From Podarcis vaucheri (lineage: Eukaryota): a DNA stretch of 64,000 nucleotides. Each line of letters opens with the position of its first letter. Position 1 is the first letter of the stretch. This document shows, piece by piece, positions 10,503 through 36,140 of the stretch. The stretch lies in the NCBI GenBank assembly GCA_965113315.1, contig OZ220368.1; one strand, given 5' to 3'. The notes below the pieces were generated by a model. It searched no databases. It worked only from the letters and a program-made list of their open reading frames with translations, and was not told where the DNA came from. Both the position numbers and the translations under genes were made by a program.

Positions 10503-11223
10503 TCACTCTACAATTTTCTTATAAAACAGCAGGTAAGGAGTAGATGTAGATGAGGAAATGGGGGACAGAAGGTTGAGAAAGTCTTTTTCCTCTGTAACTT
10601 TCACTTCGGAATCATCAAAAAGTAGCCACTTCCCCTCATACTCTTTCAAGCTCTGCATTATATGCATTGCTTTATTTTCTAGTCCGATAGCAGGATCAGT
10701 TTGCTCACAGCGTTCAAACTCCGCAACTTCTTTAGCATGGCTATGCTCTGCATTTTTAGTTTCAGTGACTATGTTAGCCATCATCTCAGAATGGGTTGCT
10801 TTGTTGCTTGGCAAATCACAGTTCAGCTTGCTTTTTTGTCCTCCAAGAAGCCCCACAGCTTCTATATTCTTTTTGTTCAGTCCTTTGTTAGGCTGAGCAC
10901 TTCCACTGACTCTAAAGGAGACCTCACCGTCGTCATAGTCCTCAGTGACAGCTCTTGCTTCTTGTTCATTCAGTGGCTCTGGGTGAATTTTACAAAATGG
11001 ATCACTTGTTAAATTGTCCTTGTCCAATTCCAAGCTATCCAAATTTGTAATTTTAACAGAGGCTGTGTAGTGCCCACTGCTGATTGTAATACCGCTGTGC
11101 ATCACTACAGCAAACAGTCCATATATTTCGTTGCCTGGGTTTATGCTCCAGTCATCCAAAGACAGCTTGAGAGGTGTCTGTAAAGGAGTATTTATCTTGG
11201 ACAGCCCACCGTAACAATCAAAC
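10503..11223 (-). CDS. USP1: USP1 last coding exon (His box HSGITISSGHY, GG autocleavage site LLGGQK, FDD)
   Basis: Motifs plus acceptor ccccaag|G; stop at 10505-10503. Confidence 0.97.
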
Positions 11224-13311
11224 CTTGGGGAGAAATGTAATAAATAGATTATGTTGTCACTTTGCACAGCTCTTTTAAATTTTAAAATTCATCTAGTTTG
11301 CTTTCCTGTTGCTCTAGGATATCAGTCACTCTTAAACTTGGATTCTCTTAAATTTGCATTATCACCAAGTAATATTGCAAACCTTGAACCAAAATGAGGT
11401 ACTCTAGTGCTTAGCTTTTAGATCTCCAACATATTAAGATACTGTACTTAATTTCTTGCTGTAACAAATCAAGTGACTGAACAACAGCAACTTTTTTCAT
11501 TTTTTAAACTATTACAAAGGTAATTTTTTTTTGACAATTAGGTATTTCAAAAGACAGCCCAATAGGTAAGCAATTTGCATAGGTATTTCTGAATAAGCAT
11601 TACAACAAGACACCAGCTAATTTCCCCCCATCTCTTTGCACTTACAAATTGTAAAATAATTTCATGTTTCACAACAGTGAAATTCATATTGGGGACAGTT
11701 GAGAGAATCCGCTCAATAGATAATTCAATTTCAGATATGCCTTTAATTTACACTTAAACTTCCAGTAAAATAACAGCAGGAACTGTTGGTTGCCTTGTTT
11801 TTATTACAATCCACTGGTTTTTGCCTGAGGTATCTAATATTTGAAAGCTTACAAAAGATAGTCTATAATTATATGCTGATTGGTGTTTAAATAGCAAGGA
11901 AAGCCATACAATAGTGGAAAATTAAGAACAGGGTTTATTTGGCAATATATTTTATGTATTATGAACATGACCTAAATAGATATAATGTGGGACTACAGTG
12001 GAAGAGATACCTGTTTTAAAATATTTAAGACCTTCCATGAGAAACAAGAAACAGTGGGAAGAATAGAATACATATTCTAACACACATTTATTAGTGGATA
12101 GATCTTAATCATTTAAGTCTTTTGAGAGTTTGCAACTAGTGAAAAAATAATGGCAAGTAAGCCAAGACAATTGATTCTCACCGTGCCTAGAAGTAATCAA
12201 GGAAGCTACCCAGCAGTCTTTCCTTGCTAATGGGGTGCTTGCTAGTTTAGGCACACTCACATAAAATACTATCATTGTACTATTGCCTAATTTATTTTTA
12301 TTTCTCTAGACAACTGTACACTTTGTAGTATTTAGGTCTGCTTTAGCACGGTCTACCTGTTGAAGAAAATATTCATCACCAGGTGAGTAGAATTTAATAT
12401 TGGCTGCTTTCCCAACAAAGCGTGAGTTACAAGAAAGTACTTGACTGTGACCAAAGTAATGACAATGAAGCACATGACTTTTATTTTAGAAGGAGGATTT
12501 TGCTTAAAGGTACATGCACACTAAGGGAGCAATCCTCTGGAAGCATGCTGATGTAAATTAAGCCACTGTAAAATTGCACCAGATGCAAACTCCATTAAGC
12601 AGCAGGGCTGCTCCTGCCAAACCTGGTTGAGGGAAAACAAGCCTTTTAAAAATAAGTGTTCTACAGTAGGTTGCCAGCTCATGTGACTGAGCTGTATGAG
12701 CTTAGAATCCAGCCTTCCCTAGTCCTGCCCCATTACACCCCGTTTTTGAGGACAAACACCAGCTTCAGCTCAAGCGGGTTAAGCAACTTACACCAGGCTA
12801 AACTAAACTAGGATTGGGAGATCCGCTGCATCCTGAGCTGCTTGTGCTGGCAGATCTTTCCATAGGAGGGATATTTGCATGCATATAATTTGGAAAGAGC
12901 TGGAAACTTTTAACACCCCATATGGTCTGACTAATTTTTTTATTTCAAAAGTAGTGGCAAGAACAAATAATTTTAGGCACACCATTTCTGGAAGTCTTGT
13001 ATCTTCCCTCCCTGCATTCAGAAACACTGATCACACAAGATCCCCATGAGTGTATATCTTTGTTGTAAGGATGTAAGAAGCTGCAGGATATGTCCCACTG
13101 CTCTCTCCCCCTTCATGCTTAGAGGAACTGAGCTACTGTGCAAATTCCATGGGAAGCACAATCTCAACAGTATATTTTGGGATACCTAACAATATAGTTC
13201 ATGCTCTTCTTTCCAGAAGTTAAATTCACTTGATGTGGGTTCCATTTTATTATTTTATATTTGTGCAGTTTTACTTCCAGTAGTTCAATGTGGTTTATTC
13301 ACTATACTCAC

Positions 13312-13513
13312 TCTAATCCTCTAGCTGCGAAGCACTTCAAGTGGATGGTTATAACTTCAGGCATTTTGTCAAATAGAAGACTGCGTTCAGCTTCTGTGTA
13401 ATGACGACAGTTTTCACAGAAATATTTATCTTCTCCCACAATCCTCTCCACTGAAGCAAACTGGGAAATTGCCCACTTCAGAGTCTTCACTTCTGTTTTG
13501 GGATCTGGAGAAA
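13312..13513 (-). CDS. USP1: USP1 coding exon 7 of 8 (KYFCENCRHYTEAERS)
   Basis: ag/gt boundaries, 202 nt. Confidence 0.95.
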
Positions 13514-13945
13514 CTACAAAAGAAAGTTGCTTATATTTAGTTTGCCCAATACTGTAAGCAGTTAAATACAAATCAGGTTGTTGACCACGATAATATGAGT
13601 GCAGGACATGTGAGCAAATGTTTTTAAAAGTGCCAGAATCCTAGAGAACTACACATCAGGGTTCCAAAGCTTATGCTCTGCTGTGATCTCATGACTCTCC
13701 AAAGCCAATTCCTAATCTCCATACTTCAGCACAACCAAACAGAAGGCAGTTTCTTTAAGGTGGGGAAGGGGTTTAACACCATCCTAGAAACCTGCAGAAT
13801 CCTAGAGCCATGCATTCTTCCATGTAACTAAGACCTGTATTATAGGAAGTATCTGTCTTACGTAGATTGCCATGCTTCATTTCAGCACGTTACAGACTGG
13901 TATGATCACACATTTCTAAGCAACCAGAATGGGGACATTTTATAG

Positions 13946-14081
13946 CAGGCATAGGCAAACTCGGCCCTCCAGATGTTTTGGGATTACAACTACCATCATC
14001 CCTAGCTAACAGGACCAGTGGTCAGGGATGATGGGAACTGTAGTCTCAAAACATCTGGAGGGCCGAGTTTGCCTATGCCTG
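13946..14081. mobile_element. hAT-type palindromic MITE
   Basis: TIR CAGGCATAGGCAAACTCGGCCCTCCAGATGTTTTG; perfect 8-bp TSD TTTTATAG. Confidence 0.9.
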
Positions 14082-14194
14082 TTTTATAGGATAACAATAG
14101 CCATCAACTGAAATACCATACTGAGCACATTCACACCACAACCACCCCTCTGGCACACACCTATTTCTTCTCTCAGAAGGTCTGATCAGTGTGG

Positions 14195-14680
14195 TGCAAC
14201 TGCAAAAAGGCTAATGCAATTTTGGGGCTGTATTCAAAGAATCTTAGTTTCTAAATAACAGTGTCACCTTATTCTGTACATTTGAGGTACTATTTCCAGT
14301 TTTGGGTGTTGTGCTTTTAAAGGGCATATAAACAAATTGGAATTGGTTCAGTGGAGGATAATGAAAAATGGAAAACAAAGCCTATGAGAAAAGGTTGGAG
14401 AAACTAGGTATGTTTCACCTGGTGAAAAGACATATTTATTTAGAAAACTTATGCCGTACCCTTCCAATGCATCTGCATCTTCCAAGGTAGCTTACATTTT
14501 ATTAATGCCATGGAAAAAATTAAAAAGCACACAAATGCAACCAAATCAGCAGATGAAAACATTCTAAGAAAAATGTAACAAACCAACCAGATACTTGTAG
14601 GGCTGTCATACAGAAGAGGGCAAAGACTTGTTTCCTAAAGTAGTGACCTTAAGTTACAAGATTACTGTACATTTAAGCTT
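14195..14680 (+). mobile_element. Degenerate CR1 LINE fragment
   Basis: AAAAAGGCTAATGCAATTTTGGGGCTG, GAGGTACT..CCAGTTTTGGG, TATGAGAAAAGGTTG: CR1 ORF2 3' hallmarks. Confidence 0.6.
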
Positions 14681-15158
14681 GACAGTGGAACAAAATTACT
14701 GGGAAGGGGCCCTTGCTCTTGGGAGCTGAATAGCAATCTCTGCTGGGGGAAAGCTGTAGCTCTGAATTTCCTTCATCAAGCAGTGTTCACCTGCTGATCT
14801 ACAGCACAGAAGGGGAACTCCAGCCCATGGGCCTGATTAGGCCTAGCAGGGATCCTAACTTCACTCACAGTACTGTTTTCCCCAAACCATGCCCACCTGC
14901 CCCACCCTTGGCATCAAGTGTAAGCTGGGAAAAAGCTGTTTCCAAGAAAATGGTTGCATATGTACTTTAAAAGGTAATGTCTGTCAGCACCCATCAGGTG
15001 ACAAGTTGTCAGGATACAACTTAAAAAATAATAAAACTATATATAGAAATGTACACCCAGAATTTAACTACAGTTGGCAAGTAAAGTATGCATACTCCTA
15101 CCAAACACAGGCATGTGAATCACAGACATACTTAAAATTTACTGTGGCTTATACTTAC

Positions 15159-15329
15159 TTTCAGAATTCTCTTCTGTTTTTGAGAACTCTTCTTTTTGCA
15201 CTGGCACACTAATATCTTGAAAGTCTTCTCTTCTCTCAGTGAAACTCTCACACTCTAAGCATCGTGTTCGTAACACCAACTGACCCTGGAAGAGTCTCTC
15301 CACTAAATCGAAGACAGCTAACTCTGAAC
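15159..15329 (-). CDS. USP1: USP1 coding exon 6 of 8 (FQGQLVLRTRCLECE)
   Basis: ag/gt boundaries, 171 nt. Confidence 0.95.
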
Positions 15330-16498
15330 CTAAGGTGAAGCACATACCAGATTAGGTTAAACTCTTTTCCTGAATAGATATTATTAGAGTTCTCTGAATT
15401 TCATCATCTTACTGCAGCTCCTCGTACTGCATATGACACTACTCCTCCAAATCCCATATCTTTGAGCAGCTGTAGCAGCAAGAGGAAATGCTCCAAAGTA
15501 TAGTTCAAAAACTGTAAACCAAGGCAGGAAGTTCCATCCACAGCTCTTTGGATCTCTTTAGATCCCACTCCATATGAACAGTGTAGTTCTTATTAGGAAC
15601 TTCAATTATTAGGCACTACACTGGGGGTACATTCTTGATATTGAACTCGCTAATGTCATTGCAGCCCTATCTTTCAGATACAACCAGCACACCCCTAAGC
15701 ATGTTTACTCAAAAAGGGAGTATGTGAAGAAGAATCATTCATTATGCAGGAAATGGTTTTCCATAGGGCAAGATAAAAGATCTTTTAGCATACAGGCTTA
15801 ACCATTCTAGGCAGCTTCTTACATCTAAAAAAGAACTTTACCAATCTACCCCTACAAAGAAATCCCAGTATTTTCAGTTTTTGTTTTAAAGAATACTAAA
15901 ACTATTGATTTAATTTTCATTAAGTTAAATCCAGAAGTATTAGAAATGTTAAAACACTGACCTTCGCTGTATTACATTTTGGCTTGTTATATTTGCCAAC
16001 TCAGATCTAGTTAACCCAGCCCTGCAATATGCCACTGTTCTGCTTGCTTAGGGCAAGTATCAGCCATCTTTGCTTTGCCCTACAAGAAAGCTACACTGCT
16101 GGAACTAAACATATCTCAATCTCTTTCCACCCTGTGTCCCACCATGCATAGTTAATGTCAGGAGAAAGTGAGACACAAAACCCAGCCATGAAACATGGTT
16201 GGGTTAGTAGTCTTGCTTCTAGGTTTACAGCGCTATCCTAAAATGTTTACTCAGAAGTAAGCCCATTGAGTTAAATGATGCTTATTTCCTAGTATATAAT
16301 ATACAACTGTATATTATATAAGCCACAAAATATGTACAGCCTTCATAGCTCGACTGTGGTAAAAAAGAAAAAAGAGCCAAGCCAAGGAGGCAATTCATGT
16401 GACTTGTTCCATCTCTTCTACCACTAATGAAAACACAAAAATGTGGCCAGGTGATCTTAGCAAACTGGGCACACACACAAGTTACTCATAAGACTAAC

Positions 16499-17196
16499 CT
16501 CTCTGGCATCGTTTTTCAATTTCTTTTTCGACAGTGCTTTCAATAGATGATGGATCACAATAGTCTTCCGTTCCTTGGCTGCCATTTTCACACTTGCGGA
16601 AACTGTCTGTGAATCCAGAGTTTTCTATTTCTTTAACAGGCTCTTTGAACCCCAAGTTTGTTGTCAGCTTTCCCAAACTACAAAATTTGGACAGAATGCT
16701 AGGTTGCTTGCTTGAAGATTTTAACCAATTTAATCGAAGTCTGGATTTTTTATGGGTTGGTTTTGTATTTTCATTTTCAATGCAATGCTTAATGGTTGCT
16801 TCAGATTGATTTTCTAGTTTTTCCTCCAGGGCTTTTCTCTTTGACCTGGTCCGTCTCTGATTCTCTTCTATTCCATTTTTCTCTTTGGAAACTTTGGATT
16901 TTTTCTTTTCATTGCCATCCTCTGTATCATTTTTTCTTTTTGCATTTCCGTTAGTTTTATCTTCACCGTCCTCAATAGCTTGCTCAGAGATCAAACTAAC
17001 ATCTTCCTCAACAATACCAGTACTGACAATATCCTGATTAGTAGTTTTCTTTAGTTCAGCTGTGGGCTCTTCTAGTGATCTGGGTTTCAGTTGTTCCTTC
17101 AACAGCTGACATGTTTCTTGGATATGTCCCAATATACACTGCAATACTTCTTGGGCATCATGTTGCAAGTATCCCTCATACATGGGGTTCAGTTCC
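16499..17196 (-). CDS. USP1: USP1 coding exon 5 of 8 (QHDAQE box and basic insert with NLSs)
   Basis: ag/gt boundaries, 698 nt. Confidence 0.95.
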
Positions 17197-17723
17197 CTTT
17201 AAAAAAAATGCAACACATTACCTAATATACACAGTCAAAAAATAGCTTAATGACACAGTTTAGACAGGGATTCATGAGCATAACCAAATTTGGCAGGTGC
17301 CCTTCTTGGGAACACATTTTAAGTACAATTCAAGTTACTACACTATGTTTGGGGGATCCAAAATTAAAATGAGGTAGATGTACAGCTTCATCAAGTTCTC
17401 AGTTTTGCAGGCTATTATGTATTTAGAATTATGGAGATATATTTTTGTAAAACTAGTATATTACAGATAATTTGCTATTTTTGCCTATCAGTCATTTAAA
17501 TTTGACTGATTTGAGATCACAGAACAGGTTCAATCTGCATTGTTGCTGAGCTATCTCACATTATAAAATGACTAGAAATGAACACATCTACTGTAAGAAG
17601 ATGCTGGAGAACATATTTGTGAATAGGAATAATTCAATAAACTTAAAAGGCTGTCTTTCTGTAGAAAATTACAATATTCCATATCATTTGCTTCAGAAAT
17701 AGTTAGAAACACATCTTTTGTAC

Positions 17724-21082: not shown

Positions 21083-21442
21083 AAGGTAAAAGGTAAAGAA
21101 CCCCATGACAGTTAAGTCAAGTTAAAGGCAACTATGGGGTTGTGGCGCTCATCTCGCTTTCAGTCCAAGGGAGCCGGCGTTTGTCCACAGACAGCTTTCT
21201 GGGTCATGTGGCCAGCATGACTAAAACGCTTCTGGCACAACAGAACACGGAAATGTCGTTTACCTTCCTGCCGCAGAGGTACCTATTTATCTACTCGCAC
21301 TGGTGTGATTTTGAACTGCTAAGTTGGCAGGAGCTGGGATAGAGCAAGGGACGCAGGTGGCACTGTGGTCTATACCACTGAGCCTCTTGGGCTAGCTGAT
21401 CAGTAGGTTGACGGTTTGAATCCCCACAACGGGGTGAGTACC
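21083..21442 (-). mobile_element. Older Sauria SINE with inverted 5' segment
   Basis: 3' body on minus strand 21347-21083; 5' head GGGACGCAGGTGGC on plus strand 21348-21442. Confidence 0.8.
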
Positions 21443-22779: not shown

Positions 22780-24470
22780 GGCAGCGTGCATTGTGACGAC
22801 ACAGCTTCACAAGAGCAACTGGAGCACACGCCGAAGTGGGCCGGGAAACACAACTGCGCTTTGATTAGCGCGCGATGCAACTCAAAACTGCGACCGCTTA
22901 ATACAAAGTTCCCTTTGACCTAGACACTAAAAGCCGGCGGCTTCTGAACTGTTTTTTGGGTTGTTAAGGAGAAGCGAAACAGTGCAGGAATCTGACGCTA
23001 CCGGCCAGGGCGGAAATCCTATTTACTGCAGAGTGAAGCCCCAAATCGCCCCAGGTACTTGACTTAAGAACGTCGGGATGTCGTTACTTTTCCGGTACAC
23101 AACCCCGAGGCATCTCCCCCTCCGCCCCGCCCTAAGTTTTGAGGGCAGCTCGAGAAACGACCCCCCAAAAATACTCTCGGCCCGGCACTGGATGCGAAAA
23201 GGATGAAAACCGAAAGCCGAGAAAACCTTCCATAGGAGGAAAGCAGGCAGACACGCTCCCCCTGCACAGACGCCACGGGCGGAGCCAAGGGAAAAGGGGA
23301 GAAGGGCAACTACCCCCCCAAATCAATAAAAATACTTCACTGAGGTTCTGCATCCCCCCCCCCTTTCCACACGAAGCCTGGCTCCGCCCGTGACAGACAA
23401 AAAAAAAAAAAAAACCAGCAGCGGAGAGTTCCGTAGCGCGCCTTCCACTTCACAACTAATTTCCGTCTCAAGGGTGAAGAGGAATATTCTTCCCTGAAGC
23501 TCCACTCGGGCAGGCAGGGCTGCGGCTCGAAGCGACAGAGAACCAGCAGCGGCCCGCAGTCGTTCCCTCGGAACCCCCCCCCCCCGGGGAACCAGGCGGC
23601 GGTAAAGAGCAGGCAGAGTTGTGCCCCCGCCCGCTCATGGTGGCGCGGCCGCCGCATCTCCTCACCCGCCGCCGCTACATCTTCTCGTCCTGGCCAGGTC
23701 CCCGTGGGCGAGGCGCGGGAGGGCGCTGCCCCGGAATAGCCCCTTCCCCAGCTGCTCTATAGACTGAGGGGATCTGGGGTCCCTCCAAGCTCAGTCACAC
23801 ACCCACCCGCCCGCGACGGGAAACTTGGCGCGTTTTGCACACCGCCAGGACCCCTCGTTCCCCCACCGCGTTTCTCCCGCCCGGCGACTCGGGGGTTGTC
23901 CTGAACGGATGCCGGTTTGATAATAGCCACGGTCACCGCCCGCTGAGGCGGTGAAAAGTTCGGCAAACTGCCTCCCTAGTTGGTTTGGGGCTCGCCGCCG
24001 CTTCTGGTGCAAGCAAAATCGCTGCCTCCCTGCCTCCCTCGTTCTTTTGGGCTCAGGCGGGTGGCTTGGACAGCTCGGAAGGGTCCTCGCGGAAACGCGC
24101 GCGTGCAACGGTAGAGGCCTGGGCTGGAAAGCTTAAAGCCCGCCGCCAACAGGAGACGGATGGAAGAAAAGGAAATACGAATCGGCCCCACCCTGCTCCG
24201 TCGCTTGACCAATCGCGGCCTGCTTTGACTAGCCAATCACTTTACCCCCCAAGGCCAAAAGAAAAGCATAGTGCTCTTTTAAAAGTGACAGTGTAACGGT
24301 TGCTGGGACGCAGAGGCCTGAAGGAACGTAGGGGAGAGAAAAAGGCGCGAAAGGGGAAACTAGGTGGAGTCGTAGATCTATTAAAAAAAGGGTAGACTCA
24401 CACGCGCTGGCGATTTCCGTTTTGACTTTTAATGCTCGTTTTGGGCTTCTCGGAAGTGAAGGCGAGAAGT
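22780..24470 (-). promoter_or_regulatory. USP1: USP1 CpG-island promoter and non-coding first exon (candidate donor near 23665)
   Basis: High CpG density; CCAAT at 24209 and 24233; E2F site TTTCGCGCC at 24352-24344. Confidence 0.8.
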
Positions 24471-24649
24471 ATCTGCATCAAATTGACACAAGAGCATCTG
24501 CAACAGTAATTTGCTGCACCCTGGGGTGCTGGAAAGGCAAACCAGTAATGATCAGAAAATAAGCAGTGAGGAGGAGCTGGGAGTCACCAACTTGGCAAAT
24601 CTGCTGTCCTACAAATGTTGCAACTCCTATCAGCCCCAGCCAGCATTGC

Positions 24650-24763
24650 CAAATACCTGGCCTAAGGCTAAAATTACTCCTTCGCAACAATTAAAAAAAG
24701 AGATCAAATACCTGGCCTAAGGCTAAAATTACTCCTTCGCAACAATTTAAAAAAGAGATCAAA
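24650..24763. repeat. 55-bp tandem duplication
   Basis: CAAATACCTGGCCTAAGG...AAAAGAGAT twice, one mismatch. Confidence 0.9.
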
Positions 24764-24882
24764 CCACTGGGGGTTAGGGTTAGGGGGCGCAAATCCACAG
24801 GTTAGGGGGCGCAAATCCACGGGTTAGGGGACACAAATTACTTGCCTTGCCCTGGGTGCTGACAACCCACGCTACGCCACTG
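24764..24882 (-). mobile_element. One-ended hAT MITE (same family as 36764-36921)
   Basis: Terminal CGCTACGCCACTG and shared internal sequence. Confidence 0.8.
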
Positions 24883-25741
24883 CCTTAACGGAAACTTGTG
24901 AAAGGAGGCTGACACATTGGTAGTAGTAAGACTGAAAAGATCCCCGTGGGTTGGAATATGCCCTCTCATAAAACTACTTTGGGGTCAGGGAAGGAGGAGG
25001 AAAACAGGATTAGGGCGATGGCTTTGATTACACAACTTGCCTCCAGAGCAGACAGCTACTCCCTCCTTCCACCGGGGCTTCTGCTACGATCAGCTTCGCA
25101 AGCTCTTCACCCAGCCTTGCCTTTCTACCACCAGGGAGTCGGAGGGACTTCAACACTGTACTACTTTGCAGGATTGTTGTAAATTTCTCTTTCGGTCTCA
25201 GCAATTAATCTTCAGTATTAATCGGATTTTGTTTGTGACTAGCCATTCCCTCACAGGTCTCAACCTTCAGGCCCCAGCAATAGGGAGATAACAGTGTCCT
25301 GACTTGTATTTGAAGTTGGATTGGCAGGATGTTTTATAAGTGTTTAGAATCGAAGACCCACAACCTTCTCACCTTTTAGAAGATCAGCAATTTCACATTT
25401 GAGTTATTTGAGAACTCTCAGGTGGATGGCATTGGATCCCGTATATCCAAGGATACCCTTCACCCCCTAAAGAAAACGAATGTATAGTAAGTCCCAGTAT
25501 TTCCCTTTCACAGCCTTGTTGTGGGGAATGTCCAGTTGGCCATTTCTGTGCCATGCAGACTGTTAAGGCATAGAAGCTTTAGTGAGGAACGTTGCTGGGG
25601 CAAACAGTTGATATAATAGTGCGAAGATCAACAGAATAGTTTGGTCAACATAGGTTCGGGTGGGGACTGATATCAGAATTGAATAGGAAAGCCTTTTCAA
25701 AAGGTAAATAGAAAGTTATCAGATAACACTGCCTTATACTA

Positions 25742-29287: not shown

Positions 29288-29567
29288 TATACATATAGGG
29301 TGGAATGCCATGTAGTGCTAAGTCACTCATTCTAACAGTGCAAGGATTTTTGTTTGTGTATCCCCTCAATCTGTTCTAGGAGTTCCCCTAACACTCTGAG
29401 GAGGGTGTGATGCATGCGTGGGGAGTCCCATTGCACAAGCAGAAATTGTTGCACAGCATCAGAAAGCAGGTGGTGGAGGGAGCAAACCTGCTTACGGTAT
29501 GTGCAATGAAAAATGTATGGATGGATAAGATTAAACCAGCTCTAATTCTATAAACTTTATAACTGCA

Positions 29568-30256
29568 TGTAGACATGTTATTTCTATGTGCCTAGTATAG
29601 TAAAACATTGGTTCTTTTCCTCCTGCATTCTGGGAATTATTTCTATCTTCTCTTTGCTTCTAAAACAGACTATAAGGCCTGTTTATAATCAATCACGCTT
29701 CTCTCCCTCTCTTTCACGCACAAGGCTAAAGGTCTGTGCCTGGCACAGATCTTTCTGTATAGCATTCCTTACATACCACACTTGTCTTCTTTAGTTCACC
29801 TTTAGTTCACAATGATGTGTAAATCACAATGATGTGTTAATCCTCAATGTATAATTAATTGTGTGAGTTTATATAACAATCTAAACATTAGTAAACACCT
29901 TCGTTATAACATTATCAATCTTAGTCATAGGTGGATTAAGAGCTTATATGCCTGTCTAAATACAGCTCTAACATTCTGTCTTTCATGTGCCAAAGATCTA
30001 TGGAGCTATGTAAGCCCGCCTTACATACAAATGAGCCAATAGGATTTCAGTTTCTTTGTCTTGTATTGAGCCAATCAGCCACTGGCACATTCGTGGCCAT
30101 GCTTTTTGTAACTTTGAATAAAAGGAGATGCTGTGAGGCTAGAGGAGGAAGAATCTCTCTCTCTCTCACTTTCATCTGGCACACACGCAAGCTCTCAGAA
30201 AGAAAACATCTCGTTGTCTGTCTTTATTCATCTCTACAAACCCCCAAAAACCAACA
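29568..30256 (+). repeat. ERV 5' LTR (689 bp)
   Basis: Identical to the 3' LTR except C30212/T34456; two GAGCCAAT boxes; AATAAAA at 30117. Confidence 0.97.
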
Positions 30257-30258
30257 TC

Positions 30259-30276
30259 TGGTGACCCCGACGTGAT
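30259..30276 (+). promoter_or_regulatory. ERV primer-binding site, tRNA-Trp
   Basis: TGGTGACCCCGACGTGAT, the 18-mer used by avian sarcoma-leukosis viruses. Confidence 0.93.
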
Positions 30277-30284
30277 CCTGAAGA

Positions 30285-30293
30285 AGGGTAAGT
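30285..30293 (+). promoter_or_regulatory. ERV major splice donor
   Basis: AGG|GTAAGT between PBS and gag. Confidence 0.7.
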
Positions 30294-30384
30294 AATCAGA
30301 TCCCAATAGAGATCCCTTTAGAGCCAAAAGCATTCCTCATACTAACCCGACTGGGAAAAAGTCTAAAGCGCTTAATTCGTTAGT

Positions 30385-31929
30385 ATGGGAGGGGATTTAA
30401 GTAAGGTGCAAAAGGCTCACGCGAAAGAGCTTCTTTCGTTAGTAAGACAGACAATAGACAAAGTTCAAATTTCTCTAAAAGAGATTGAACAGCTACTGCA
30501 GGAAATAAATCATCAATGTCCTTTTTATCAAGCAGAAGGCTCATTGCAAATTAGCACATGGGAGAAGATCGGCAAAATTTTATTTTCCGAGCCACGTGCT
30601 CCAATCAGCTGCCTACTCACATGGCAAAAGTGTGCTAACGCCATAGCAAAATTAGAACAATCTTCTCTTTCAATTTCTCCATTGCTGGCAACTGCAGAAA
30701 CCTCCCCCCCGCCATACCCTCTGATTTTGCCCCCTTTGTCTCCTTCATCACCTAGCCGAAATCCCCCTCCCTTTTCTCCTTCCCTTGCTCCTGAACCGTC
30801 TCAGTTTACAAATTCCCCCCCAATCCCCCCTCACCCCCCTTCTCTGCCTGAACAAGCAAATCGGCATGCCTTTGTCCCTTCCTCTTTGTCTCTAGACCAT
30901 GCTGCTTTGCCAAAACAATATGGAGCCGTCCGTGCTGGGCTTTTACAGGCTAAGCAAGATGGGCTTTTTTCATTGGAAGAAACAGCTGCATGGGCTGGTG
31001 AAATGCCATTAATTTTTCCTCTCACATATCAAAATGCTCCTGGAGGTCAGCAATTACAAGTTTATCATGAAAAATTGCCTTATGCTGTCATGAAAGATCT
31101 CAGGAAAGCCATTAGTGATTCAGGTCTTAAATCTTCTTATGTAATGGGTATTATAGAGGGCATTTCTACCTCTTATACAATGATTCCGAGTGACTGGAAA
31201 GATTTGATGAGGATGATGTTATCTCCAGCGCAATTTTTAGTTTTTGAAAATGAATTTAAACATGCCGCCATAGCTCTGGCTGATCCAACGCATACAGCAA
31301 GCCAGCTTTTCGGCGCTCCTCCATTTGAGACCCTGGCTGCCCAAGCCGTGTTGTCACCTTCACACTTTCAGCGCACTGCAACTTGCGTGCAGCGTGCATT
31401 TCGTAAAATTCCTGTCTCAGGACAGCCACTGAGTTCCTTTGTAAATGTTAAACAGCAGAATACAGAGCCATACCATCAATTTGTGGATAGATTGAAGGAA
31501 TCTATCTGTAGACAGATAGATAATGAAACGGCTCAGAATGAGTTGCTAAAAAAATTGGCTTATGAGAACTCTAACATGGACTGTAAAAAAATGCTGCAAT
31601 CAATCATAAGCCGTTCAACATATTCCCTTGCAGATTTGATAAAAGCGTGTTCGGAAGTAGGGAGTCAATCTCATACAATATCTTTGTTTGCCAATGCACT
31701 TCAGGCTTCCGTGAGACAAACAGGAAACTGTTATAATTGTCACCGTCCTGGTCATTTTGCAAAGCAGTGCAAGGCCCAAGGTGGGACTGCACAGAAGAAT
31801 AATAATGCAAATACCACGACCAGACCTTCCAAAAAATGTCCAAAGTGTGGGAAAGGCTATCATTGGGCAAATCAATGTAGGTCTCAGGGAAACTTCACTG
31901 GGCCCAGTCTCTCGGGCCCCAAAGAATAG
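30385..31929 (+). CDS. gag: ERV Gag polyprotein (514 aa), intact
   Basis: MGGDLS myristoylation motif, beta-type matrix CPFY..GSL..WEKIG, PPPY late domain, MHR VKQQNTEPYHQFVDRL, two CCHC knuckles. Confidence 0.96.
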   Translation: MGGDLSKVQKAHAKELLSLVRQTIDKVQISLKEIEQLLQEINHQCPFYQAEGSLQISTWEKIGKILFSEPRAPISCLLTWQKCANAIAKLEQSSLSISPLLATAETSPPPYPLILPPLSPSSPSRNPPPFSPSLAPEPSQFTNSPPIPPHPPSLPEQANRHAFVPSSLSLDHAALPKQYGAVRAGLLQAKQDGLFSLEETAAWAGEMPLIFPLTYQNAPGGQQLQVYHEKLPYAVMKDLRKAISDSGLKSSYVMGIIEGISTSYTMIPSDWKDLMRMMLSPAQFLVFENEFKHAAIALADPTHTASQLFGAPPFETLAAQAVLSPSHFQRTATCVQRAFRKIPVSGQPLSSFVNVKQQNTEPYHQFVDRLKESICRQIDNETAQNELLKKLAYENSNMDCKKMLQSIISRSTYSLADLIKACSEVGSQSHTISLFANALQASVRQTGNCYNCHRPGHFAKQCKAQGGTAQKNNNANTTTRPSKKCPKCGKGYHWANQCRSQGNFTGPSLSGPKE

Positions 31930-31935
31930 AGAGAT
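31887..31935 (+). promoter_or_regulatory. gag-pro -1 ribosomal frameshift signal with H-type pseudoknot
   Basis: G GGA AAC slippery site, 6-nt spacer, stem1 GGGCCC/GGGCCC, stem2 GTCTCTC/GAGAGAT. Confidence 0.88.
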
Positions 31936-32663
31936 GTCAGCCTTTGGTTTCTGCTGCTGCAAAAGTTACTAAAAATATGCCTTCTGAATTTGCCATTGAT
32001 TTGATTAATCAAGAGACCAAAAACACTGCATTGCCTGGTGAAATCATAATCATGGCCAGCCAAATGGCAGGTCCACTTCCTCCTAATATCACAGGTTTAA
32101 TTTTACCTAAATTTTCTGCTGCAAAACAAGGCATTCATGTCATCCCAGGTGCCTTGCCTCCTGACTATGTGGGCACAATCATGGTTCAATTTTGGAGCCA
32201 TATGCCCATGCAGTTAACAAAGGGTGAATCTTTTGCTCATTTGGTGATGCTGCCTTCACCACCTGATGTTGTTTGCGCTATTGACACTAATCTGCACAAG
32301 CTCTCTTTATCTTTTTCCCCACAGCTTCTAGCTGTGACCCAACGTATTGGAAGAGAGAAACTCCTTCGTAAGTATAAAATCAATGGAAAAATATTAGAGG
32401 GTCTGATAGACACTGGTGCGGATGTTTCGGTCATTTCCAGTAATTTTTGGGAACAAACTTGGCCGCTTGAAACTTCTCCTGAAGTGTGGGGCGTGGGAGG
32501 TAATCAGGCTTCTTGCAAAAGCGCACAGTGGCTGCCTGTCTCTTTGCCTGATAGCTCTGAAGTTATTGCATATATTCAGCCCTGTGTGCTCAAAATTCAT
32601 CTTAATTTGTGGGGAAGAGATTTGTTGCAACAATTACAAGCAACCATTCAAATAAATGAGTAA
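31887..32663 (+). CDS. pro: ERV Pro (degenerate dUTPase-like domain plus aspartic protease), -1 frame from gag
   Basis: LIDTGADVSVI, GVGG flap, NLWGRDLL; dUTPase-like GPLPPNITGLIL...DYVGTI...GESFAHLVMLP. Confidence 0.93.
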   Translation, partial: GKLHWAQSLGPQRIERCQPLVSAAAKVTKNMPSEFAIDLINQETKNTALPGEIIIMASQMAGPLPPNITGLILPKFSAAKQGIHVIPGALPPDYVGTIMVQFWSHMPMQLTKGESFAHLVMLPSPPDVVCAIDTNLHKLSLSFSPQLLAVTQRIGREKLLRKYKINGKILEGLIDTGADVSVISSNFWEQTWPLETSPEVWGVGGNQASCKSAQWLPVSLPDSSEVIAYIQPCVLKIHLNLWGRDLLQQLQATIQINE

Positions 32664-32724
32664 GTTTGTGCTTCCACTTACTTGGAAGTCCACTGATCCT
32701 ATATGGATTCCGCAATGGCCTCTT
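32656..32724 (+). pseudogene. pol: pol remnant: first 23 codons (start of RT), then deletion
   Basis: MSKFVLPLTWKSTDPIWIPQWPL matches the class II RT N-terminal P(L/I)xWK...P(V/I)W(V/I)xQWPL motif. Confidence 0.88.
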
Positions 32725-33611
32725 ATAATGCTACTTGTGCACGTATGGTCAACTGTACGAAACAAAACTGCGTGAAAATGGGCAAAAATAACTTTAATTG
32801 CTCTGATTATGTAAATATTTCTTATATATATAAGTACACAGAACTGCCAGCAGGCTGGTTTTGGTCCTGCCCAGGTTACACTTTCAATTACATTCCGGCA
32901 AACATTAGTCACGGCACACCTTGTTGTTTAAGCCGTCTGTCTATCATATTGCCTGGAAAACATCATTTCTCTTACTCTAGACATCAGCGTAGTGTTGAAT
33001 TGTCTGATGACTGTGATGATCTTGTCTCTCTCCCTAGCAGGTCTGAATACATCTCTTTAGCTGTCTCTCTCTTAGGTGTTCCAGGTTTGGCTGTGCGTAA
33101 TAGCGCAAATATTAATTCCTTAGCTTGCTCTGCAGCAAAATCCCTGAACTTTACCTCTCAGGCGCTTCATCTTCTCAACACAGAGCAAGCCGAACTTCGC
33201 AACGGTTTATTAAGGTCGAAATCTACTTTGGACTACCTACTCATGGTACATCATTATGGTTGCGAACAATTCAAGGAAATGTGCTGTTTTAACATCACTG
33301 ACAATTCTAAGGCCGTTCAAAGGCAAATTTCTCATTTGCAAAATCTCACTCACCACATTAAAAAGGATATCGGATTTTCCGGACTCTGGGATTCCTTTTC
33401 CTTGTGGTCTATGGCGTGGCTCCCTAATCTCGATTGGCTACGCAATGCCTTTTTTTATGTAATTATTATTGTATGTATATTAATTTTGTTTTGTTGCTTT
33501 CTCCAATGCATTCCTAGCCTTACAAATCTTTTTTCTCGCCTTCTCTCTCCTCCACCACCACCTAGCGCGCTCCTTGCAGCCTATTATGCGAAATGGCAAC
33601 GCCACCAGTAA
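32703..33611 (+). CDS. env: 5'-truncated Env (SU C-terminus plus complete TM), ASLV-like, no signal peptide
   Basis: LPAGWFWSC..PCCLSRL, furin site RHQR (32979-32990), Cys-flanked internal fusion peptide, CEQFKEMCC (CX6CC), TM helix. Confidence 0.92.
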   Translation: MDSAMASYNATCARMVNCTKQNCVKMGKNNFNCSDYVNISYIYKYTELPAGWFWSCPGYTFNYIPANISHGTPCCLSRLSIILPGKHHFSYSRHQRSVELSDDCDDLVSLPSRSEYISLAVSLLGVPGLAVRNSANINSLACSAAKSLNFTSQALHLLNTEQAELRNGLLRSKSTLDYLLMVHHYGCEQFKEMCCFNITDNSKAVQRQISHLQNLTHHIKKDIGFSGLWDSFSLWSMAWLPNLDWLRNAFFYVIIIVCILILFCCFLQCIPSLTNLFSRLLSPPPPPSALLAAYYAKWQRHQ

Positions 33612-33788
33612 GAAAAAACAAAAATAAAAGGGGAGATGTGGGTAGGATTATTTTGAGATTCGTTGGCACACCACTAATCTTGAAGTACTTTTGCCCCATC
33701 AAGCCTAGCAGTATTATTTCCGGCATTTGATGGCAAACCACTAATCCGGAAGTATTGTTGCTTTATTCACCTAGTTGCCTTACCTCGC

Positions 33789-33811
33789 AAAGAAGAAAAA
33801 AAAGGAGGAGA
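33789..33811 (+). promoter_or_regulatory. ERV polypurine tract
   Basis: AAAGAAGAAAAAAAAGGAGGAGA directly before the 3' LTR. Confidence 0.9.
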
Positions 33812-34500
33812 TGTAGACATGTTATTTCTATGTGCCTAGTATAGTAAAACATTGGTTCTTTTCCTCCTGCATTCTGGGAATTATTTCTATCTTCTCTTTG
33901 CTTCTAAAACAGACTATAAGGCCTGTTTATAATCAATCACGCTTCTCTCCCTCTCTTTCACGCACAAGGCTAAAGGTCTGTGCCTGGCACAGATCTTTCT
34001 GTATAGCATTCCTTACATACCACACTTGTCTTCTTTAGTTCACCTTTAGTTCACAATGATGTGTAAATCACAATGATGTGTTAATCCTCAATGTATAATT
34101 AATTGTGTGAGTTTATATAACAATCTAAACATTAGTAAACACCTTCGTTATAACATTATCAATCTTAGTCATAGGTGGATTAAGAGCTTATATGCCTGTC
34201 TAAATACAGCTCTAACATTCTGTCTTTCATGTGCCAAAGATCTATGGAGCTATGTAAGCCCGCCTTACATACAAATGAGCCAATAGGATTTCAGTTTCTT
34301 TGTCTTGTATTGAGCCAATCAGCCACTGGCACATTCGTGGCCATGCTTTTTGTAACTTTGAATAAAAGGAGATGCTGTGAGGCTAGAGGAGGAAGAATCT
34401 CTCTCTCTCTCACTTTCATCTGGCACACACGCAAGCTCTCAGAAAGAAAACATCTTGTTGTCTGTCTTTATTCATCTCTACAAACCCCCAAAAACCAACA
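33812..34500 (+). repeat. ERV 3' LTR (689 bp)
   Basis: Copy of 29568-30256. Confidence 0.97.
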
Positions 34501-35195
34501 ACTGCAGTCTGCAAAAATAACTGCACTTGGAAAACCAAAAGCTCCCCATATACTTTGCCAAAAATAACCACACACAGCACTTGAAAAGCACAGCTTTCCG
34601 GGAGGCAGAATCTTTAAGGAGCTGAAAGGAGTCTCCATTACAAAGCATTACCCCTGCAAGAGAGTCTCCTGCAACCTTTAGTTGTTTCTCTGCTTCACAT
34701 AAACCATGGAAACCCCAGCCTATTTAAAATCCTACTTCGGCCCCAGGGTATTTCAACATTAAACCTATAAATCTAATAGGCTTCCTGCATTGTCAAAATT
34801 ATGGTGCGAGTTCTGTGGACACTGTGCAAATTGTACACATACCATATGTTCCTTTATTAACCTCCCTTCTGAGGCCTCAACACTAGGTAGAGACCGCACA
34901 GCTGGAAAGACTGCAAAATGCTCTGATTTTCCTGAAGTGCCAGAGTGACAAAATCCATTTGTCTTTGGCAGAGTAGCCTAATTTCTGATCAGATGCCTTC
35001 AGATTGTTTTGCTCCTAGAGTTCTGCTAATGCAGGAAGTTTTGTTTCATGTAATGGTCTACAATTTATAAGACAAGAACCAGCTGTTAAATAGTATGCAT
35101 GGTGGTAAAACAAAATAGTAAGGGCACTTGCCTAATTTGCAATACTGTACTAATACTACAGAACAGCATTTTTCAAACTGGATAACTGCAGCATA

Positions 35196-35547
35196 AAAAG
35201 GTAAAGGGACCCCTGACCATTAGGTCCAGTCGTGGCCGACTCTGGGGTTGCGGCACTCATCTTGCTTTATTGGCCAAGGGAGCCGGCATATAGCTTCCGG
35301 GTCATGTGGCCAGCATGACTAAGCCGCTTCTGGTGAACCAGAGCAGTGCACGGAAACGCCGTTTACCTTCCCGCCGGAGTGGTACCTATTTATCTACTTG
35401 CACTTTGACGTGCTTTCAAACTGCTAGGTTAGCAGGAGCAGGGACTGAGCAACGGGAGCTCACCCCGTCGCAGGGATTTGAACCGCCGACCTTCTGATCG
35501 GCAAGTCCTAGGCTCTGTGGTTTAACCCACAGTGCCACCCGCGTCCC
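35196..35547 (-). mobile_element. Sauria SINE
   Basis: Family sequence; TSD TAACTGCAGCATA. Confidence 0.9.
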
Positions 35548-36140
35548 TAACTGCAGCATAGTCCTCGCATTAAAGTAAATTAGAGGCACACTTCAGTCGT
35601 ACATCAAAAAAAGATACACACATTTTCTCAGTAATCTCTGACGAATCAAGTGCATGATAGCCAGGAATGGGCAAATTATGTAGGTTTGGTTTCTCTGAGT
35701 TTTTCATTTTTCCCGCTTTGCAAAATTTAGTTCTCCACATTTCTACATCAGTTTGAAAAGTGTTTTGATAAAAAGTCCTCGTGAAAATCCATCAGCATTT
35801 TAGTGTTGCATTTCTCCTGCCAGATGTTAAGAAAATAAACACCTGACTTTTAGAAGCCCTGTATAGGGAAGTTTTTAATGGTTGGGTTTTTTAAATAATT
35901 TGTTGAAAGCTGCCCAGAGTGGTGGGGGCAGATGGGCAGCAAATAAACATATTAAATATAAATATATTATGTTTTAATATTAGCACATTTTAGTATACAG
36001 TTTCCCCTAATATAATGCATTTTTGTATGTTCCTCTCAATAATGCATGGATTTTGTTTCAGCCCTTACCCTGTTACATTCATTTTTGTACGCATTACTTT
36101 GCGTACAGTATAGTCATGTATAGGATTGCTCTAACAGCCA

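Follow-up and report, generated by a model that had tools for sequence, protein, structure and literature searches.

How does a class II retrovirus produce reverse transcriptase (RT) and integrase (IN) when no −1 frameshift site leads into pol? The question is raised by a provirus in a 64,000-nucleotide stretch of the Podarcis vaucheri genome (contig OZ220368.1 of assembly GCA_965113315.1; hereafter, the window). The element is almost certainly a recent insertion, deleted in pol and env, that belongs to a high-copy family of lizard class II retroviruses with an alpha-type envelope, which we call family A; its older sister is family B, and a further set of proviruses is family C. The original prediction described an alpha/beta mosaic at positions 30259..33611; the traits on which it relied do lie there, but the provirus is larger (Table 1), and the prediction overlooked the pro/pol junction, which is the most unusual feature of the element.

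Orthoretroviral Pol is made as a fusion with Gag, whereas foamy virus Pol is made from a spliced RNA (PMC3705302; this and all other papers are cited for the parts of their text available to us). On balance, the sequences favour a different arrangement for the lizard family, in which translation of RT–integrase would begin at its own AUG, most likely on a spliced RNA, and yield a protein free of Gag and not a Gag–Pro–Pol fusion.

The pro/pol junction and selection on pol

In family A, the pol AUG lies in the +1 frame and, in an AUG-NN-stop arrangement, pol and the pro stop have an 8-nt overlap in 36 of 37 loci (the exception is a single copy), and an in-frame stop immediately precedes the AUG. 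At the junction of the window sequence the −1 frame is closed and there is no −1 heptamer. Family B has the same AUG and frame in all 14 distinct loci that retain the RT start (three more are without the region), and the junction has been kept through UAA/UGA, N/D and GAG/GAA changes. In family B the open pol frame extends as many as 21 codons beyond the AUG in the 5′ direction, so the adjacent stop is not essential. No canonical junction was found in 51 family A and B loci. Podarcis lilfordi proteases have the same C-terminal residues, and the same Met opens a Podarcis muralis Pol; four P. lilfordi gene models (P0123, P0124, P0125 and P0127), which are predictions only, join at the same residue; and contigs of three organisms that span the junction show one listed change, with the stop kept, in a comparison confined to differences away from the contig ends.

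A control survey examined 82 loci, of which 25 were without the motif and 31 were duplicates; among 25 distinct junctions from outside the families, 22 were −1, one was in frame and two were +1. The family C junction is −1, with the heptamer AAATTTA, in 5 of 5 loci, and the idea that the AUG junction is shared by the whole reptile clade to which these families belong was therefore discarded. Records from more distant hosts hint at AUG-initiated Pol beyond lacertids, in tortoises and snakes: 7 of 8 records of a 10-row subclade and a tortoise record begin with a Met that lies 14–19 residues before the first RT motif, and in the Pol records of P. muralis, tortoise and cobra the initial Met precedes that motif by 14–16 residues.

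Purifying selection on pol is strong, which indicates that Pol worked with the AUG/stop junction in place. Between families A and B, dN/dS is 0.08 at a dS of 1.1, and within family A it is 0.12 (Nei–Gojobori estimates from pairs that are not independent; env was outside that run). Some route other than a −1 shift must have led to Pol expression. All 33 pol-bearing family A loci have the RT motif YTDD, as does the P. muralis Pol record; in family B it is YTDD in three loci and YMDD in another three, and because the YMDD loci carry the same junction, the junction is independent of the motif. A degenerate pattern for a family-A-like motif with Met gave no matches; the three YMDD loci were found by protein search.

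An acceptor-like site upstream of pol

A strong acceptor-like site at 32324/5 lies 331 nt upstream of the pol AUG. It occurs at the same offset, with 17 of 18 pyrimidines, in all 12 scorable family A and B loci (13 tried), whereas the corresponding position has 8–14 pyrimidines in controls (12 scorable, 15 tried) and 14 in four family C loci. Only two sites of such quality occur in the 6.6-kb interior of one provirus (L012), and the site has been kept across a dS of 0.7–1.0 in pro while the encoded linker residues and length change. At the 5′ end, a predicted donor precedes the gag AUG in both families, and the 110 nt preceding the primer-binding site (PBS) contain no AUG. AUG density is 0.3–0.9 per 100 nt before pol as against 1.6–1.9 elsewhere in the element. 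The 331 nt hold one to three AUGs; in 38 of 38 family A copies and 12 of 14 family B copies, no upstream open reading frame (ORF) reaches the pol AUG when counting begins at another AG, 7 nt 3′ of the acceptor. A predicted leader donor, an acceptor and few intervening AUGs are what a spliced pol RNA would need. A donor-like GTAAGT at the pol AUG was set aside because it is not conserved, being absent from seven QIDE-type loci and one other.

Routes to Pol

In the scheme that we favour, genomic RNA would be translated into Gag and, through the −1 shift at GGGAAAC, Gag–Pro. The leader donor would be joined to the acceptor at 32324/5, and ribosomes on the resulting RNA would traverse the upstream ORFs (one to three, short or weak) before starting at the pol AUG. 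Because this AUG roughly coincides with the start of mature RT, cleavage between protease (PR) and RT would be unnecessary. Free Pol might then be packaged through contacts with RNA or Gag, much as in foamy viruses, and tRNA-Trp would prime reverse transcription. Deleted copies would arise repeatedly by template jumps at a 10-nt repeat and would depend on longer copies in trans.

Several observations weigh against this scheme. One is the atypical YTDD motif, which bears on how active such an RT would be. The context of the pol AUG is weak (U at −3), and this AUG could be a by-product of the Asn/Asp–Glu codons that end pro; AUG density is also low in family C (0.85–1.13), where 4 of 5 loci have an AUG close to the junction despite the −1 heptamer. 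One −1 control (L066) has a stop followed by Met, and Met starts near RT occur in 10 of 40 records from outside the clade. Two related D-type contigs, L028 and L135, read as +1 with a heptamer (AAATTTA), a long pro tail and no AUG, which may reflect an error common to both records or an unusual shift. A +1 relation was reported, as read by software, in 27% of beta endogenous retroviruses (ERVs), and was ascribed largely to post-integration change in damaged copies (PMC1224870); in the lizard, by contrast, the +1 state is fixed across families A and B. A search for spliced retrocopies with one pattern, the leader exon followed by a base other than G (acceptors beginning with G fall outside it), gave a single match, which was unspliced. 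Two single-cell runs from a related organism yielded 32 and 27 reads and no splice joints, which are too few reads to be informative.

Own-AUG synthesis of Pol, by splicing and reinitiation taken together, is quite probable. Splicing ranks first, above reinitiation and then a +1 shift, although by itself it falls just short of an even chance.

Termination–reinitiation, second in rank but unlikely, would also give free Pol, from the unspliced RNA: having reached the pro stop, ribosomes would resume translation at the AUG, 5 nt back, as in caliciviruses. Stop and AUG lie within 8 nt of each other, out of frame, in both families, and such overlaps, with the codons within 20 nt and no need for a Kozak context, are described, including their use by the SART1 retrotransposon (PMC10275272). 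However, an overlap of stop and AUG is to be expected anyway because PR and RT abut in any retrovirus; reinitiation leaves the conserved acceptor unexplained, and upstream structure does not exceed that of shuffled sequences (z 0.75). The UGGGA core, a reinitiation motif, is absent from the 100 nt upstream, the nearest copies being at −162 and −208, inside protease motifs. An AUGA variant considered as evidence for reinitiation was dropped because it occurs in a single copy.

A +1 ribosomal shift at the pro stop, resembling that of antizyme, would instead produce an ordinary Gag–Pro–Pol fusion and make the AUG incidental. This third route, which we consider rather improbable, would retain the normal way of packaging; stop-then-G is conserved, and downstream of the stop family A has a hairpin (z −1.8 to −2.2), although that of family B is weak (z −0.4). 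The in-frame stop of family A limits the shift to the last two codons, where the Glu tRNA would be expected to re-pair poorly in the +1 frame; moreover, the P-site codon (GAG/GAA) and the stop (UAA/UGA) both vary, and no spacer for a PR/RT cut is evident.

Very improbable, finally, is a lesion shared by copies that were at no time makers of Pol and owed their spread to an unseen helper carrying a canonical −1 junction: deleted copies do show spread or origin without their own Pol, the family A RT motif is atypical and only the best-scoring candidates were examined, yet this explanation is already weakened by the selection on pol across both families, by an open pol in 30 of 36 tallied loci (four of them deletion copies), by the uniform lack of a canonical junction and by the three family B YMDD loci with the same junction.

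Copy number, age and deletion

A genome search with the env remnant gave 224 candidates, of which 40 were scored and were 98–100% identical; a protease search gave 313, and the 142 scored comprise about 110 of family A and about 30 of family B. Family A has about 100 or more copies and is very young. Its long terminal repeats (LTRs) differ at 0–3 sites between the two ends of 35 loci (two tandem loci set aside), and at 1 of 689 sites in the window copy. All 36 tallied family A loci have an open pro, 30 an open pol, 30 an open env and 20 an open gag, counts that overstate intactness because the loci were chosen by score, partly by pol score. Family B is 70–76% identical to family A in pro and about 80–85% in pol.

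Longer family A copies measure ~7,980 bp. The window copy has lost 3,050 nt of pol and env between two copies of the 10-nt repeat, so that its sequence passes from RT codon 23 straight into the surface subunit (SU), and its env is a 3′ remnant only, with start codon and signal region absent. The same deletion junction was found in 5 of the 41 matches listed. The five copies do not form one clade (approximately unbiased (AU) test, p = 0.0015; 38 rows), which makes it likely that the deletion recurs by template jumping; recombination between copies could give the same scattered pattern.

Family B copies (L145–L170) lie mostly on one 41-Mb contig (G000:C41), a concentration of older copies that would fit a W chromosome. 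Similarity of their LTRs to those of family A is limited to short patches, whereas the PBS is kept. Tandem proviruses with shared LTRs and a 7,292-bp spacing occur at G000:C18:44.74–44.76 Mb (L022 and L023), and similar evenly spaced runs are found on C36 and C27.

Position of the lizard family

The original prediction placed the element between the beta- and alpharetroviruses, or saw in it an env/leader recombinant. In the RT–RNaseH tree (31 rows), families A and B fall in a 13-row clade with support of 100/100, all named members of which are reptile sequences; the same clade appears at 98 in an unfinished 55-row quick tree. It branches outside a weak group (85/87) of avian sarcoma–leukosis virus (ASLV) and bird and mammal beta-like sequences, so that the lizard RT lies neither inside the beta clade nor with ASLV, and a grouping of families A and B with ASLV was rejected (AU p = 0.0003). 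The closest Pol records are from Podarcis (86%), in keeping with a lizard host, followed by tortoise, sea turtle and snakes (46–57%); bird and mammal records reach at most 42% over full length. Intermediacy is thus contradicted by RT. Trees of Gag capsid–nucleocapsid (CA–NC) and of PR leave families A and B on a deep, unattached branch of their own. These trees were built without python, Mabuya and caecilian sequences, and the names of viral contigs rest on matches in the Protein Data Bank (PDB) and on what we take those viruses to be.

The betaretroviral traits of the prediction were borne out. Gag begins with MG and, judged from sequence, has a myristoylated beta-type matrix (MA; Pfam Gag_p10, E = 8e-8), followed by a p24 match and two CCHC knuckles; its best solved relatives in the PDB comparison are HERV-K and Mason–Pfizer monkey virus (M-PMV) Gag, and MA gives z 11 to L138 but −0.3 to ASLV. 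The pro gene does lie in the −1 frame behind GGGAAAC, and the fold downstream of this heptamer is no better than that of shuffled sequences (z 0.1). A dUTPase-derived domain precedes PR (Pfam E = 2e-7; top PDB match 2d4l); it is degenerate, lacks the last motif (in the set and numbering of motifs that we assume) and looks inactive.

The alpharetroviral traits hold as well. The same 18-nt tRNA-Trp PBS was found in nine viral contigs with ASLV-group-like ORFs, among them L035, the env of which matches the ASLV transmembrane subunit (TM) structure (E = 3e-27). Fifteen of the 18 nt match three host tRNA-Trp(CCA) genes, and the remaining three correspond to the CCA end of the tRNA. The PBS is exact in 22 of 37 family A loci and carries insertions of 2–3 nt in the other 15; these variants occur in several family A sub-lineages and perhaps reflect a recurrent copying event or another primer. 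TM is collinear with ASLV gp37 (furin site RHQR, LAC, CX6CC-FN), its top PDB match is ASLV TM, and CX6CC is present in 35 of 37 family loci. SU has no CXXC, and a Cys-bounded internal fusion peptide is present, with Cys at +8/+46 (ASLV, +9/+45), as in alpha-type envelopes. The TM ectodomain scores highest against ASLV (178–183, compared with 120 for family C), whereas the anchor and tail are nearer to reptile family C (z 16–18) than to ASLV (z 3–7). In the ectodomain tree the lizard TM joins ASLV at 85/82, but the alternative was not rejected (p = 0.275). Atlas placed env with clusters carrying TLV_coat (73–94%) and Avian_gp85 (15–27%). When longer proteins were searched with the env remnant, none of 4,789 candidates scored, and the sampling of remote env and pro relatives is thin.

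A stem lineage placed between the alpha- and betaretroviruses and near the origin of ASLV would account for the exact Trp PBS and the ASLV-like ectodomain, since a deep-branching lineage could have kept ancestral traits; with RT excluded from the ASLV group, the TM anchor and tail pointing to family C and the taxon sampling as described, we find this view hard to credit. The mosaic itself is real, as RT and env point in different directions, and it probably reflects env exchange. Exchange of env or leader inside the reptile clade is plausible because family C (L171–L175), a distant member of that RT clade in the P. vaucheri genome with a −1 heptamer, carries a gamma-type env with CWxC and a different PBS. 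This site begins TGGTGCCCCGTG, unlike that of family A, and is presumably of the tRNA-Met type; no dUTPase hit was obtained in family C.

Comparison with known retroviruses

Mosaics of this kind have precedents. The caecilian ERV-AB-Mun combines a class II pol, a separate pro and an alpha-type env in ~200 young copies with identical LTRs (PMC12690878). It resembles the lizard family in its class II pol, separate pro ORF, alpha-type env (in layout only) and young copies, but its pol is reported near alpharetroviruses, with YMDD, whereas the lizard family belongs to the reptile clade and family A has YTDD (PMC12690878). ERV-AB-Mun may or may not share the AUG/stop junction. Alpha-like envs are described as ubiquitous in reptiles, and the Mabuya Mab3/Mab4 clade and CHIRalphaEnv relatives likewise have alpha-type env in squamates and turtles (PMC13568524). 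Where CHIRalphaEnv-related elements have a pol, it is reported as gamma, in contrast to the class II pol of the lizard family, the env of which may be listed in the supplementary tables of that paper (PMC13568524). Further cases of env swapping are given in PMC10536682, PMC9967133, PMC12287698 and bioRxiv 10.1101/2024.07.05.601823. Because the caecilian layout and the reptile alpha-like envs are already published, the alpha/beta mosaic extends a known pattern, of which the lizard family is a new member.

With ASLV and the avian alphabeta/EAV ERVs (L033, L035, L063 and L089) the family shares the tRNA-Trp PBS, the 6-bp duplication, the Cys-bounded internal fusion loop, CX6CC and an SU without CXXC. 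It differs from them in its separate pro with a dUTPase remnant, its myristoylated MA, its RT outside their clade and its junctions, since theirs are 0/−1 or −1/−1. The avian alphabeta clade has been defined, with −1/−1 shifts given for that clade and for a python virus (PMC3482500). The alpharetroviral set of gag and pro in one frame, no dUTPase and a −1 shift into pol was not found (ASLV controls compared). With M-PMV, mouse mammary tumour virus and HERV-K, the family shares the MA type, a dUTPase before PR, the −1 gag/pro shift and two knuckles, and betaretrovirus/HML proteins give the highest PDB scores for its Gag, PR, RT and IN. Unlike betaretroviruses, it has no −1 pro/pol site, no G-patch, a Trp PBS and an alpha-type env, and its RT lies outside the mammalian beta group. 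In place of −1/−1 shifts it has −1 at gag/pro and +1 without a heptamer at pro/pol, and a tRNA-Lys PBS with a beta- or gamma-type env is likewise lacking; PBSs of beta controls begin TGGCGCC, which we take to be the tRNA-Lys type.

If Pol is indeed made freely, the likeness to foamy viruses would extend to a Pol independent of Gag, a spliced RNA and another packaging route (PMC3705302). Foamy Pol includes PR, whereas lizard PR stays on Gag–Pro and Pol would be RT–IN alone. The Cys–His boxes of the lizard Gag and its class II RT place the family outside the Spumaretrovirinae. Literature searches found no description of the lizard family or of an AUG-initiated orthoretroviral pol, and no paper on Podarcis endogenous retrovirus together with betaretrovirus; the available part of PMC5009743 holds no comparable case.

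Organization of the window

Table 1 Features of the provirus and its flanks in the window
Feature	Position	Strand	Description
Provirus	29568-34500		4,933 bp, with 689-bp LTRs and 6-bp target duplication
Target-site duplication ACTGCA	29562..29567 (left copy); 34501-34506 (right copy)
5′ LTR	29568..30256	+	689 bp; single mismatch with 3′ LTR, at 30212
tRNA-Trp PBS	30259..30276	+	Identical to ASLV-group site
Predicted leader splice donor	30288..30293	+	Sequence GG|GTAAGT
gag	30385..31929	+	514 amino acids, open; MG start, Gag_p10-like MA, PPPY, CA, two CCHC knuckles
GGGAAAC heptamer	31887..31893	+	Predicted −1 gag/pro shift site
pro	31881..32663	+	260 codons, open; dUTPase remnant and protease, without G-patch tail
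dUTPase remnant	about 31986-32255	+	Inside pro
Predicted splice acceptor	32287..32324	+	Start of PR domain; branch-like CTAAT, 17/18 pyrimidines, CAG
Upstream ORF	32383..32397	+	4 codons (family B, 7); lies after the acceptor and before the AUG of pol
pro/pol junction	32653..32663	+	pol AUG at 32656, +1 frame, 8-nt overlap with pro stop
pol stub	32656..32725	+	First 23 RT codons; remainder deleted
10-nt microhomology	32716..32725	+	At the 3,050-nt pol/env deletion
env remnant	32716..33611	+	SU end, furin site 32979-32990, alpha-type TM
Twin tandem hairpins	33640..33762	+	3′ untranslated region; candidate RNA export element
Polypurine tract	33789..33811	+
3′ LTR	33812..34500	+

The 3′ untranslated region folds as two tandem hairpins (z −3.96), with two-sided changes at 6 of 49 pairs (five sequences, two lineages) that are compensatory between families A and B. 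No Rfam match was found. By analogy with the direct repeats of ASLV and the constitutive transport element of M-PMV, the hairpins are a candidate RNA export element. The reading of the stretch after env as a relic LTR was ruled out, as it is a conserved 3′ untranslated region in family B.

Elsewhere in the window, exons with Pfam UCH at 10503-17198 (−) belong to a ubiquitin-specific protease, which we take to be USP1-like, and a GC-rich island lies at 23000-25000. The provirus stands ~5 kb beyond this gene and island, oriented away. A SINE-like (short interspersed element-like) repeat at 35200-35550, presumably a Sauria SINE, has a second copy near 21200.

Implications

Textbooks separate orthoretroviruses from foamy viruses by whether Pol is made as a fusion with Gag (PMC3705302). 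What appears to be new in the lizard is a class II retrovirus with a selected pol that would be AUG-initiated and lacks a frameshift link, and the evidence leans slightly towards a reptile class II orthoretrovirus branch, recently active in lacertids and perhaps in tortoises or snakes, that abandoned the Gag–Pro–Pol fusion in favour of an RT–integrase with its own AUG. For the history of envelopes, the family adds a lizard case in which a non-alpha core is combined with a Trp primer and an alpha-type env, extending the caecilian and reptile findings. If true, a selected pol without a frameshift link in a class II family of ~100 or more copies would break that textbook division. Gag-independent Pol would then have arisen twice, independently, in the history of retroviruses, in this instance alongside an ASLV-type envelope and primer, and the family would offer a second natural system for how free RT–IN is packaged and dosed.

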